Positions 27,250 to 45,933 of a DNA stretch of 64,000 bases are shown here, one piece after another. The stretch's first letter is position 1. Each line of letters begins with the position of its first letter. The notes under the pieces were generated by a model. It was given only the letters and a program-made list of their open reading frames with translations, had not been told where the DNA came from and did not search any database. Source of the DNA: a virus (taxonomy: Duplodnaviria > Caudoviricetes); the IMG/VR virus record IMGVR_UViG_3300026493_000002; one strand, given 5' to 3'. The position numbers and the translations under genes were made by a program.

Positions 27250-28025
27250 GCAGCCACGTTCTTCGAGTAGTGGACAACCCCACACTTCCGCTCGTTCCGG
27301 AATTCTCGGTCGCCGTCGGTCATTCCATCGGTGACTTCGGAGCGCAGGCCAGCAGTCTCGGAGGCATCGTCTATGCAACGTTGCTTAAGAAGAGCTCCAT
27401 TCCGAATGAGGAGTCGGCGCGTCGTCTGCACGCTTCGATATCCAAGCTGTACACGGAAGATCTGGATCGACCGATAGCGGGCATGACCGCTCAGCTTGAT
27501 GACTACAGCATTCCTCTCTTGCGCATGTCTAGCGCCGAGATTGACCAGTTGGTATATCTCGGATTCAATCCGATCCGCTGCGCAATCCAGTTCGGCGTTG
27601 TTCCGTGGGCGCAGCATACGTCTCATGGGTACAGCATCCAGCTGCTGCGCCTCTTGGTGACGGCTATTCATGCCATTTCAGTACGGGCGGGGCGTGCCTG
27701 CGAAGCCTGTTCGCTGGAAGGACCTGCACGCAATCACGCCCTGTACCACCACTCTGCTGAGGTCTTCATGGAGCTCCAGCAGTTCAGGCTTTCGCATATG
27801 TTCCAACTGGTAGCAGGCAGACACGGAGCGCACGGTATCGCCATTATGCTTGAGCGCGACGCCCCGCCGTTCGGAAAGAACTTCCTTGAGGAGGCTCTGT
27901 GCATAAGCACGGACGTCATGGAGGTCGGTAACGTTTTCGGAACCCTCCACCAGTTGCAGATCCTGCATGAACTGTGGCCGAGCATGTTCACTGGTGGCCC
28001 GCAAATCTGTAAAGGGAATCGGTAG
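27246..28025 (+). CDS. hypothetical protein
   Basis: 259 aa ORF, weaker codon bias. Confidence 0.55.
   Translation: MSSHVLRVVDNPTLPLVPEFSVAVGHSIGDFGAQASSLGGIVYATLLKKSSIPNEESARRLHASISKLYTEDLDRPIAGMTAQLDDYSIPLLRMSSAEIDQLVYLGFNPIRCAIQFGVVPWAQHTSHGYSIQLLRLLVTAIHAISVRAGRACEACSLEGPARNHALYHHSAEVFMELQQFRLSHMFQLVAGRHGAHGIAIMLERDAPPFGKNFLEEALCISTDVMEVGNVFGTLHQLQILHELWPSMFTGGPQICKGNR
28006..28013 (+). promoter_or_regulatory. TCTGTAAA candidate phage promoter
   Basis: At the end of the upstream gene, 33 nt before ATG 28046. Confidence 0.55.
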
Positions 28026-28045: not shown

Positions 28046-28498
28046 ATGCGCGAATTGAAGTTGCTACGCAAGCGCGTAAAGGCAATGTGGAAAATGGAAG
28101 AGGAGTTGTCGCCTCCGGAGCGCAAGCTCCATCAGTGGCAATTCCTCTCGACCCAGACGGGCATCCCGTATCTCGTAGGCAAGGGTGACGCAAACACCTT
28201 CTTCTACAAGATCGGCGAGAAGGGCGAAATGCAGTACGTCATGCCCGACAAGATGTTTGCCATCTTGGACAAGTGGTGCGGCGAGAAGTACGTCATGTAC
28301 GCCATCGCTCGCAACTCCAACGTGAAGAAGGCCAAGCGCCAATCGAAGGTCCTCGCCGACCTGTTGAAGCGCACCAACTCCAAGTATGCGGACTACCACA
28401 TCGTGGGTATCACCGCCGACAGCCGAGTGGACAAGCTGTACTCGATGAAGACAGGCCTGACGGCCAACCAGTGGGTGCCGTTGAAGGTCAAGCCGTAG
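28046..28498 (+). CDS. hypothetical basic protein
   Basis: GAGG RBS, strong codon bias. Confidence 0.7.
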   Translation: MRELKLLRKRVKAMWKMEEELSPPERKLHQWQFLSTQTGIPYLVGKGDANTFFYKIGEKGEMQYVMPDKMFAILDKWCGEKYVMYAIARNSNVKKAKRQSKVLADLLKRTNSKYADYHIVGITADSRVDKLYSMKTGLTANQWVPLKVKP

Positions 28499-28610
28499 AT
28501 GCAGTGTGACGTGTTCAGAAACCGGTGCGCACGTTCTGCCCGGAAACACTAATTTCTGAACACGTTTGGCACACCAAGGTGAGCCTCTTCCACACTACAG
28601 GTACTTCCCC

Positions 28611-28994
28611 ATGAATCCACCCTCGGCAGAGTCGAAGGCATCATCCGGGTCGCGTTACATAACAGTGATGCTGATTCCGGTACTTGGTGCCAACGGCAAG
28701 GTGCAGAATCGCACCATCCCGTTTGACCGTCCTCCCACGAAGGAATTCGCTGTCAATACCTGCGAGCGCCTCCACGAGGAGTACGTCACCCGTGACGGTT
28801 ACGATTCGGAATGGGAGCGTTGCGCGGCAGTACTGAGGCAAATCCCCGAAGAGCGGTTCTCGCGTATGAATCAGCGTCGTGCTACCAGCATGACTCACCT
28901 GGTCGACGTGGCGCTTCCCAACGGTACGATCACCCAGCGAATGTTCAGCGCACGCTCCTGCCTCGTCCACGAGGTCAAGCATTCGGAGCGGTAA
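28611..28994 (+). CDS. hypothetical protein
   Basis: ATG 28611 after CAGG; coupled to the next gene. Confidence 0.6.
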   Translation: MNPPSAESKASSGSRYITVMLIPVLGANGKVQNRTIPFDRPPTKEFAVNTCERLHEEYVTRDGYDSEWERCAAVLRQIPEERFSRMNQRRATSMTHLVDVALPNGTITQRMFSARSCLVHEVKHSER

Positions 28995-29176
28995 TGCCAA
29001 GCATCAACTCCAATCCAAGGCGTCTTCCCTCCCCGTCTGAGGCGAGGGCGCTCTCGCTACAGATGCGCGAGCGAGCGGAGAATCACCCGGACGCTACGCA
29101 GGACGATTGGCTGATTCGCAATCTTCTGCTGGCGTACAGTCGAGGCGAAGTACAGCCTCGTCCGAAAAAGAAGTAA
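28994..29176 (+). CDS. small hypothetical protein
   Basis: TAATG coupling, GGAG RBS, 60 aa. Confidence 0.6.
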   Translation: MPSINSNPRRLPSPSEARALSLQMRERAENHPDATQDDWLIRNLLLAYSRGEVQPRPKKK

Positions 29177-29219
29177 CCGCGTTACAGGCGAACGACTGAA
29201 TCCCGTCATCCTCTCAGGA

Positions 29220-29590
29220 TAGTGAGTAGGTGCTGCCAGGCACCGAGAGCGATGTGACAGTTTGCCTAACCCTGGCGTCCTCGACTGAGTGTGAGCAACC
29301 CAGTTGAGTAAAACCACACGACAACTAGCCAGCTCTCTTGTCTTGGCACCGCCGCTCACTGAACGCCTGGAAAACGTTCGGCAGGCTTGCACGTCGTGGT
29401 TAAGAGTTGGGATTATAGGTCGTACCCTAGTCCCGATGGGTTTATGCGAGCCACACTGGTGCCCTATGAGGTCTGACATACGGCATGGGTAATCTACCAA
29501 AGCACCTCAGACAAGCTGCTAACGCCATTTGGTTTACGGGATTTTCCGATGGCGTCGGCCGATGAATTCGGGCAGCACCTGCCTACCAAG
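29220..29590. ncRNA. candidate structured non-coding RNA
   Basis: No codon-biased ORF; long-range AGGTGCTGCC/GGCAGCACCT pairing (29229/29571) encloses several helices. Confidence 0.4.
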
Positions 29591-29814
29591 ATACACTGCT
29601 AGTTTAATCGTTCGCGTGTCTCCTCGCCGTCGCCCCGGTTTAGGATTGACTACGAACCACTAAAACATCATTCTCGATTGGCACTCGGTGATCCTTGCCC
29701 ACCGTTGAGCATCTTGCGCGAACACGCGGTTCCCCGTCCCGCACGTAATGCGCACTATCCTCACGCCACGACTGATATCCGGAATTTCGGTCTCCGGGCA
29801 GTGTACCCTCCAAA

Positions 29815-29822
29815 TCTGTAAA
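29815..29822 (+). promoter_or_regulatory. TCTGTAAA candidate phage promoter
   Basis: Inside the non-coding island, about 215 nt upstream of a terminator. Confidence 0.55.
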
Positions 29823-30070
29823 GACAGACTGTGAGGATCTTCTACGCGCCGCTAGTTTAATAGCGAATGTGGCAATTCAGTAATCGCCGGCCTTATCCCC
29901 CTTTGGCCCGCGGTCCTGTTCCGGTTGCCGCGCTACCGTCAAAACAGATTGCTTGACAATGGCCTTCCCCAGCCGGAGTCACTACCCAGAGCAATCTATC
30001 CGGTCCATGAAACCGGGCGGCGCACCCTACCCAGAGCCTCACGCCTAATCAAACGGGCGTGGGGCTTTTT
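29823..30070 (+). ncRNA. candidate small RNA or leader
   Basis: Bounded by the promoter motif and a terminator; internal repeats and hairpins. Confidence 0.3.
30036..30070 (+). terminator. intrinsic terminator
   Basis: GCCTCACGCC/GGCGTGGGGC stem followed by TTTTT. Confidence 0.8.
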
Positions 30071-30102
30071 CGTTTGTGTCACCAGTCTGGAGCCTACAGA
30101 GA

Positions 30103-30645
30103 ATGAAACGCACCACCATCTTCGGCACCCGAATCAAGGGTCGTCTTTCTCCACTGCCGATCATCACCTTCAAGCTCAAGCTGAATGGTCCCGATGACAA
30201 GATCGTCAACGGTATCGGCGTGTACGTCTTCTCGGTATTCGATGACGACGGCAAGCTGCACGTGGTCGATGCCGCTACCCAGGTCTGGCACGACCTGAAC
30301 AACACGCTGGTGCTCGCCGACGGCCGTGCCCTGCCGCTCCTCGAAGGCAGCATCGTTGATCGCCGTATGCGTACCAAGGTCGATCACGTTCCGTCGCCGT
30401 CCGACAATGCCATCGAGTATGCCAAAGAGCATATCGCCAGCATGAACGCTCACATCCTCAAGCAGTTTCACGAGAAGTTCAACACCACACTCATGGAGGA
30501 AGTAGATGAAGCCGAAGAAGACGACACCGATCAGGAAGTCCCCGCCGCAGGCGCTGCCGGCAGTACCGCGACCGGTGATCCCAACTACTGGTATGCCAAG
30601 CGTGACGACGGCGTCAGCGACAATGACGACGCGCCGATGCTCTAA
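30103..30645 (+). CDS. hypothetical protein with acidic tail
   Basis: ATG 30103, strong codon bias. Confidence 0.7.
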   Translation: MKRTTIFGTRIKGRLSPLPIITFKLKLNGPDDKIVNGIGVYVFSVFDDDGKLHVVDAATQVWHDLNNTLVLADGRALPLLEGSIVDRRMRTKVDHVPSPSDNAIEYAKEHIASMNAHILKQFHEKFNTTLMEEVDEAEEDDTDQEVPAAGAAGSTATGDPNYWYAKRDDGVSDNDDAPML

Positions 30646-30706: not shown

Positions 30707-30714
30707 TCTGTAAA
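30707..30714 (+). promoter_or_regulatory. TCTGTAAA candidate phage promoter
   Basis: Intergenic, upstream of 30792. Confidence 0.6.
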
Positions 30715-30791
30715 CAACAAGGGTAGGCAGTACGCTTCGATATTCGTTGCCTACTGCCTACCCATTTTCTTTTCCAGAGCATAAAACGACA

Positions 30792-41864: not shown

Positions 41865-41912
41865 CCACTGAGCGGCATCCGGCAGAGACGCTGGGTGCCG
41901 CTCTGTCGTTTC

Positions 41913-42047
41913 CGGCATCTGTCAAACCCGAGTGACAGCCCACGTGAGGCACGCTCAGACGTAGCCCTTGACACGTCTAACAGCGTGTGTTATACTGTAA
42001 GTGAGCAGCGACTAGACGCCACGACGATTCGGGTTTGACAGATGCCG
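41913..42047. repeat. perfect 19-bp inverted repeat bracketing a promoter
   Basis: CGGCATCTGTCAAACCCGA (41913-41931) and its reverse complement (42029-42047). Confidence 0.9.
41968..41996 (+). promoter_or_regulatory. sigma70-type early promoter P1
   Basis: TTGACA-17 nt-TATACT with extended TG. Confidence 0.9.
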
Positions 42048-42091
42048 CTCAGTGACACTCACACAAAAACGACAACACAGAGAGCTACGCA

Positions 42092-45700: not shown

Positions 45701-45711
45701 TCCATCCCAAG

Positions 45712-45741
45712 GCCCCTGCCCTAACCCGGCAGGGGCTTTTT
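45712..45741 (+). terminator. intrinsic terminator
   Basis: GCCCCTGCC/GGCAGGGGC stem followed by TTTTT. Confidence 0.9.
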
Positions 45742-45825
45742 CGTTGTGGTGAAGATACCGTGAAATCTCAAACCCGAACTGTTCGCCTCTGAGGCGCTGT
45801 CTGACACGGCTTGTTAGCAAGACTC

Positions 45826-45854
45826 TTGACGACTCTAACAGACTGTGTTATACT
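45826..45854 (+). promoter_or_regulatory. sigma70-type early promoter P2
   Basis: TTGACG-17 nt-TATACT with extended TG; spacer shares TCTAACAG..TGTGT with P1. Confidence 0.88.
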
Positions 45855-45933
45855 GAAAGTGCGACGAATCTAACAGAAACAACGATTCGGGTTTGCGATC
45901 CTACCAAAACTACAACATCAAGGAATTGCTAAA

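Follow-up and report, generated by a model that had tools for sequence, protein, structure and literature searches.

A conserved non-coding block in a jumbo-phage genome that most likely encodes structured RNAs matching no described family

The window analysed here (the whole 64-kb stretch of DNA, 64,000 nucleotides, IMG/VR record IMGVR_UViG_3300026493_000002) contains a non-coding island of 926 nt on the + strand (29177-30102), which most likely encodes structured RNAs matching no described family; we infer its transcription and, for the domains A and B (together A+B), its strand. The island is under strong purifying selection, and its conserved folding is supported by substitutions that preserve base pairs beyond what is seen in coding controls. 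On balance, we slightly favour reading it as a conserved block of structured RNA on the + strand, composed of at least two units. Unit 1 would comprise A+B (29186-29805), and unit 2 (approximately 29830-30075) would comprise a third domain (D) and an intrinsic terminator. The + strand is preferred because all genes lie on it, the terminator is oriented along it, a promoter-like box occurs on this strand only, and the tests on D plus terminator favour it. A preliminary description had presented the interval 29177-29815 as one phage non-coding RNA of unknown class. Its non-coding nature, the selection acting on it, the preservation of pairs and the lack of a matching family all stand, whereas the fold and the boundaries proposed for a single unit fail.

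The non-coding gap and its conservation

The island occupies the largest gap that a greedy gene call leaves in the window (926-1108 nt), the remaining true spacers measuring at most 233 nt. The claimed absence of a codon-biased ORF is upheld. A codon log-odds scan, trained on the long genes of the window, was negative in six of six frames over approximately 28990-30102. The mismatches against a divergent relative, contig L002, are distributed over the three codon phases as 66/63/61, leaving no three-base periodicity, and the indels have lengths that are not multiples of three and shift the frame. The island is larger than the 640-nt interval first described. The end placed at 29815 proved to be the position of a promoter-like box, with the copy at 29816 standing exactly where that interval ends, and non-coding DNA continues to 30102. 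The upstream gene and the island are separated by a 60-aa ORF (28994-29176) with a weak coding signal, which the near-identical contigs L003 and L004 share and L002 lacks.

All confident genes in the window are located on the + strand. The island is flanked by a DNA-hypermodification operon on one side and by exchangeable accessory genes on the other, and A+B sits immediately downstream of a small late operon, for which the closest promoter-like box is at 28007. Searches of the flanking ORFs returned no Pfam or PHROG functions and no usable atlas matches. The G+C content of the island is 0.55, and the cumulative GC skew drops steadily through the region with no turn. Direct repeats in the island are limited to two 11-mer pairs. 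A replication origin, offered earlier as the alternative to a non-coding RNA, is without support, since the island contains no AT-rich unwinding stretch, no iterons and no switch of skew or transcription; in addition, no DnaA-box cluster was seen on reading its sequence.

A neighbouring protein (28046-28498) has its best public relative in the Pseudomonas jumbo phage PaBG, with 57% amino-acid identity. The syntenic position in PaBG shows no gap, and nothing similar was found in public phage genomes, either by blastn of the island or by megablast of the surrounding 24 kb. The downstream 180-aa protein led to L003 and L004, a pair of near-identical contigs (97.6% identity over 10-12 kb), as well as to the divergent contig L002. 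An 18-mer scan of JGI metagenomes yielded one further copy, L019, with 98.7% identity to L002. Protein-guided and word scans of IMG/VR gave chance matches only, and a 20-mer scan of GTDB genomes gave a single chance match inside a Paenibacillus gene. Among more distant PaBG-like contigs, neither a syntenic gap nor a match to the nhmmer profile of the island was found, and covariance models built from 29221-29360 and from domain D matched nothing in the whole PaBG genome or at other loci. No third lineage was reached via three neighbouring proteins, IMG/VR, JGI metagenomes or GTDB genomes. The collection of homologues proposed in the preliminary description thus provided a divergent lineage, but two lineages in total across the collections searched, namely the window with L003/L004 and L002 with L019. 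Each compensatory change reported below is accordingly counted as a single event.

Positions 29186-30118 of the window align to L002:2854-3789 with 77.8% identity (76-78% over 890 nt). The flanking genes show 72-80% identity to L002, and the island is as high or higher. In nine neighbouring genes, 51% of 565 four-fold degenerate sites and 57% of third codon positions are identical to L002; the island is conserved like first codon positions. Near-identical strains give the same picture: comparison of the window with L003 and L004 shows 4 and 6 differences over the 890 positions of the block (0.4-0.7%), compared with 2.5-2.6% outside, which corresponds to 4-6 times fewer differences inside the island than around it. 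Moreover, the block keeps its position while its surroundings change. In L002, the block begins 10 nt after a stop codon and the 60-aa ORF is missing, whereas three extra genes (two Tad2-like and one of 256 aa; L002:3774-5974, also in L019) are inserted right after the terminator and start codon of the block, before the homologue of the 180-aa gene of the window. The block is thus retained beside different flanking genes in the two lineages, which is the behaviour of an independent module.

Folding of the island across two lineages

Table 1 Coordinates of the non-coding island and of the features within and next to it
Feature	Position	Strand	Description
Whole non-coding island	29177-30102	+	Between the stop of ORF 28994-29176 and start codon 30103; from six-frame scan, gap size and L002 alignment
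Domain A	29186-29590	+	Most conserved part, 80-97% identity per 30 nt; multi-helix fold
Helix in A	29220-29242 with 29339-29361		21 bp; three one-sided wobble changes in L002
Helix in A	29280-29290 with 29298-29308		10 bp; three compensatory changes in L002
Helix in A	29455-29468 with 29477-29490		12 bp; two compensatory changes in L002
Helix in A	29522-29532 with 29546-29555		10 bp; three compensatory changes in L002
5' arm of first-described long-range 10-bp helix	29228-29237	+	Partner 29571-29580; outside the conserved fold
Domain B	29592-29805	+	Closed by 8-bp helix 29592-29599 with 29798-29805; one compensatory change
11-mer GCTAGTTTAAT, copy 1	29598-29608	+	Just after the 5' strand of the B-closing helix
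Phage promoter-like box	29812-29824 (core CTGTAAA 29816-29822)	+	Putative, position-based; kept in L002 and PaBG relatives
Domain D	29846-30023	+	Structured body of the putative promoter-to-terminator unit; closed by 7-bp helix
11-mer GCTAGTTTAAT, copy 2	29851-29861	+	Just after the 5' strand of the D-closing helix
Intrinsic terminator	30033-30075	+	14-bp G+C-rich stem, then T-run
Ribosome-binding site and start codon of 180-aa gene	30089-30105	+	28 nt after the terminator, no box between

The A+B region is predicted to fold into several helices, each conserved independently, that are joined by single-stranded stretches more than 90% conserved. Particularly, the sub-domain 29221-29360 reaches an MFE z-score of -3.0 in both lineages, and 96.4% of its cells are paired compared with 32-53% when the partners are slid, while domain A as a whole has weak MFE z-scores (-1.7 and -2.2). 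Domain B has conserved ends and a near-neutral middle (29606-29695, 47-57% identity). Its MFE z-score is -4.1 on the - strand in both lineages and -1.5 and -2.5 on the + strand; given this more stable folding on the - strand, the strand of B is not settled. For the whole interval 29177-29815, the z-score is -1.7 on the + strand and -2.6 on the - strand (20 shuffles each), and the thermodynamic signals are uneven across the island.

This consensus differs from the fold first described, in which a 10-bp long-range helix (29228-29237 with 29571-29580) was taken to enclose a series of complementary words and to close a single domain. The words are present in the sequence, including the 10-bp pair, but they do not go beyond chance, as a perfect inverted repeat of at least 10 bp arises in 10.7% of dinucleotide shuffles of 29177-29815. 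The partner of the long-range 10-mer is deleted or changed in L002. In the consensus fold, the 5' arm 29228-29237 pairs within the helix 29220-29242/29339-29361, and the former partner goes into a local hairpin (29570-29584). Eight helices had been listed in total. Three of them are kept in L002, including 29522-29532/29546-29555, but four are broken (the long-range 10-mer, AGTTG/CAACT, GCCTG/CAGGC and TGAGGT/ACCTCA), and the remaining one, GTGAGC/GCTCAC, probably has another partner, most likely 29221-29227.

Compensatory counts from two-sequence RNAalifold alignments are the same in the island as in coding controls. These counts being uninformative, one lineage was folded alone and the effect of the substitutions of the other lineage on the resulting pairs was scored. 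On the + strand, the fraction of changed MFE pairs that stay paired is 0.40-0.47, compared with 0.19-0.31 in four coding controls; on the - strand it is 0.34-0.38, below the + strand value. The ratio of compensatory to broken pairs on the + strand of the island is 0.29-0.31 (0.01-0.16 in the four coding controls). When G.U pairs are disallowed, Watson-Crick compensatory changes make up 19-22% of the changed pairs and 6% in the controls. In addition, the structure conservation indices are modestly above those of the controls.

The placement of substitutions was assessed by permuting the letters of the other lineage among paired positions of the same base. For A+B, this yielded z = 3.5 and 5.3 on the + strand, compared with a maximum of 1.6 in 32 coding controls, and 3.6 and 3.3 on the - strand. 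The values for domain B are 3.9 and 3.5 on the + strand and 3.2 and 2.1 on the - strand, and those for D plus terminator are 2.7 and 3.4 on the + strand and 1.1 and 2.4 on the - strand. Over 136 coding-control runs, the mean was 0.1 with a standard deviation of 0.9 and a maximum of 2.25. The ratio of G.U to A.C outcomes is 31:22 for A+B, which is not decisive on the strand, and 8:1 for D. The placement test and the G.U:A.C ratio together favour the + strand for D plus terminator. Substitutions that preserve pairs beyond chance, the generic mark of a structured RNA, are therefore seen in the island on two lineages only, so that the covariation evidence is solid against controls and thin in events.

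Comparison with known families agrees with the earlier statement that the stretch carries no tRNA, tmRNA, RNase P or group I/II intron signature. ARAGORN found no tRNA or tmRNA gene over the 64-kb window, and no Rfam 15 covariance model reached its gathering score anywhere in the window; the families below their thresholds include tmRNA, RNase P, group I/II introns, GOLLD, ROOL, OLE, HEARO, raiA and the riboswitches. At E <= 10, the Rfam matches stay at chance level (11-24 bits compared with thresholds of 50-80) and fall mostly on the terminator hairpin, which is the only low-score match recurring in both lineages.

The promoter-like box and the terminated unit

The window contains 12 copies of the motif CTGTAAA, all on the + strand and each either intergenic or inside the final 18 nt of a gene. 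Eleven of them precede a gene start by 41-84 nt; the twelfth, at 29816, precedes the next start codon by 287 nt. L002, PaBG and every PaBG-like contig fetched retain the box, where it is intergenic and restricted to the gene (+) strand. From this positional pattern, CTGTAAA is a putative promoter. Copies of the longer form AAA-CTGTAAA were observed at 1342, 2622 and 5182 of PaBG (L001) and also in L010, L013 and L015. A literature search found no description of the CTGTAAA box or of non-coding RNAs in PaBG-group phages. These phages carry a gene for a sigma factor of their own, and none has been reported to possess a multisubunit RNA polymerase (PMC7412058). The host core polymerase would thus be used, and hence intrinsic terminators would apply.

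Domain D has MFE z-scores on the + strand of -3.3 in the window and -4.0 in L002, with compensatory changes at 29950 with 29994 and at 30004 with 30016. The terminator that follows is strong (z-scores of -6 to -6.5). It is kept in L002 and in L003/L004, and its changes stay paired (G.U to A-U, C-G to U-G). Box 29816 and the terminator lie on the same (+) strand and delimit a unit of approximately 245 nt. Homology to L002 continues through the start codon at 30103, which in L002 opens a different, Tad2-like gene. Folding of the nascent transcript up to, but not including, the 3' half of the terminator predicts that 29830-29839 pairs with 30033-30042 in both lineages. Both arms are invariant, and this alternative pairing is a lead, not a result.

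The 11-mer GCTAGTTTAAT is present in two + strand copies in the window, starting at 29598 and 29851, and both are invariant in L002. Words related to it stand 17-24 nt before the starts of the genes at 28046 and 28566. It is thus possible that the 11-mer acts as a -10-like promoter word and not as an RNA motif, in which case the unit boundaries would shift. Paralogy of B and D as modules was considered and rejected, the shared 11-mer notwithstanding: their global alignment gives z = 1.7, and the model of D misses B. The spacer before gene 28566 (28510-28562) contains an 11-bp inverted repeat, which is kept in L002 with a different loop. TAATTT lies in the 3' arm of this repeat, 17 nt before start 28566, and TAGTTT lies 24 nt before start 28046.

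One gene further on, at 30708-30791, a promoter-like box is directly followed by a 12-bp hairpin with a T-run; gene 30792 comes next, without another box in between. The hairpin is kept in L002, with two changes giving G.U pairs on the + strand, and the arrangement looks like a second terminated leader. The A+B region contains no promoter-like box and no sigma-70-like site. As box 29816 splits the stretch and a second unit follows it, the island appears composite and not one unit. A pairing of the 5' end (29186-29193) with the T-tail of the terminator was dropped, because box 29816 makes the island composite.

Possible roles, alternatives and known systems

Since A+B has no box of its own and lies behind the late operon, read-through from the upstream operon is the simplest reading. 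Unit 1 would then most likely be made as the 3' continuation of the upstream operon transcript, and might subsequently be cut out as a stable RNA of approximately 600 nt. Its pattern of helices and conserved single strands would fit a scaffold or decoy RNA with a protein or a second RNA as its binding partner, and it is located in an accessory, anti-defence-rich part of the genome. The strong selection, together with the place between the hypermodification operon and the accessory genes (Tad2-like in L002), would make the island, if it is such an RNA, a candidate RNA-based counter-defence or regulatory device. Unit 2 would start at box 29816, contain D and stop at the terminator ahead of the start codon. 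It could be a separate small RNA of approximately 245 nt or, more likely, a terminated leader gating the downstream cargo genes, in which the 5' end of the transcript would compete with the terminator stem. The complete picture is put forward tentatively, as one that may well prove wrong: A+B would be a new multi-domain RNA of approximately 600 nt that works in trans, scaffolding a host or phage factor or serving as its decoy, and the adjacent self-gated terminator leader would control exchangeable anti-defence cargo. If it is true, PaBG-group jumbo phages carry large structured RNAs of their own.

The main alternative, which we consider rather unlikely, is that the island consists purely of cis-acting mRNA pieces, A+B being a 3' tail that protects or times the upstream transcript and D plus terminator an attenuator leader. 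The leader part of this proposal agrees with the close spacing of terminator and start codon with no box between, with the recurrence of the layout of box, hairpin with T-run and gene at 30708-30791, and with the 5'-end pairing to the terminator stem predicted in both lineages. The tail part is in line with the missing box of A+B and with the start of the block shortly after a stop codon in L002; however, a protective tail would not need approximately 78% identity over 600 nt or highly conserved single-stranded stretches, and the persistence of the block where flanking genes differ points to a module instead. A DNA-level element is less probable again. Such an element (an origin, a primosome or packaging site, or a protein-binding array) would form hairpins in single-stranded DNA or owe its conservation to binding, and the strong sequence conservation, the strand symmetry of the A+B structure signal and the absence of a clear preference in the G.U outcomes are all compatible with it. 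Double-stranded binding sites, however, would not need the Watson-Crick compensatory changes, which are three times as frequent as in the controls; the G+C content is ordinary, the unwinding stretch, iterons and DnaA-box cluster are missing, and neither a GC-skew turn nor divergent transcription accompanies the island, as all genes are on the + strand. If no transcript is made, the block would be an unusually constrained DNA element.

The reversed orientation, a functional RNA from the - strand, at least for B, that would be antisense to all genes, is improbable. It draws on the lower MFE z-scores of B and of the whole interval on that strand and on a placement test that is positive there too, but the - strand of the window is free of promoter-like boxes throughout, sigma-70-like sites are missing from both strands at the island, its edges carry no - strand terminator, and both the pair retention and the placement z-scores of B are higher on the + strand. 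A decayed gene, or hidden small or recoded proteins, is scarcely credible: a mechanical search does list ORFs of 62, 44 and 47 aa (+) and of 147 aa (-) in the island, yet all frames score as non-coding, codon periodicity is absent, the indels shift the frame, and conservation 4-6 times stronger than in the coding neighbours is not expected of a gene in decay.

In bacteria and phages, structured non-coding RNAs of large size are a rarity, and only a few have an assigned function; an additional example from jumbo phages would extend a short list. The preferred reading, structured RNA on the + strand, can be compared with several of the systems on record. GOLLD and ROOL (also OLE, HEARO and raiA), orphan RNAs linked to phages or prophages, resemble the island in being several hundred nt long and multi-domain, in having conserved helices joined by conserved single strands, in their location in phage DNA and in that no function can be read from the sequence. 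In contrast to them, the island matches none of their Rfam models, even at E <= 10, and is far narrower in distribution, being present in two lineages of one jumbo-phage clade and absent from PaBG. It also differs in being split into at least two putative units by the promoter-like box, and it is known here from sequence alone. The stable RNAs C and D of phage T4 (species 1 and 2) lie beside the phage tRNA cluster, are approximately 120-140 nt long and are processed from a longer transcript. Candidate A+B would share with them the nature of a phage-encoded non-coding RNA of unknown function, but no tRNA genes are found in the window, and A+B has four to five times the length of the T4 species.

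In the late leader of phage lambda, the PR' promoter gives a 194-nt '6S' transcript ending at the tR' terminator, which is read through by the Q-modified polymerase. Unit 2 is similarly arranged, with a putative phage promoter, approximately 245 nt of non-coding sequence, a strong terminator and genes without a promoter of their own. It differs in that no Q-like antiterminator or qut-like site was identified, and its leader is folded, conserved and possibly equipped with a built-in antiterminator helix, which makes it more like a riboswitch or attenuator. With riboswitch and attenuator leaders, it shares a helix-closed folded domain that is followed by a terminator and then by a ribosome-binding site and start codon, as well as an alternative helix that would use the 5' half of the terminator stem. 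However, unit 2 matches no known riboswitch class, and the competing helix is invariant between the lineages. Unit 2 and the same layout one gene on hint at late or accessory genes in this phage group that are gated by termination and anti-termination. PaBG is cultivable, and termination gating would be testable in vitro there.

Two further observations concern promoter-like and strand-biased words elsewhere in the window. The spacers 41865-42091 and 45701-45933 contain near-consensus sigma-70 promoters (TTGAC-N17-TATACT), which are flanked by AAACCCGA words. CTACA is the most strand-asymmetric 5-mer of the window, with 101 + strand copies (for example 30093-30097) compared with 3 of TGTAG; 21 copies are found within 40 nt before a start codon, and the same bias is present in L002 and L010 and, more weakly, in PaBG.
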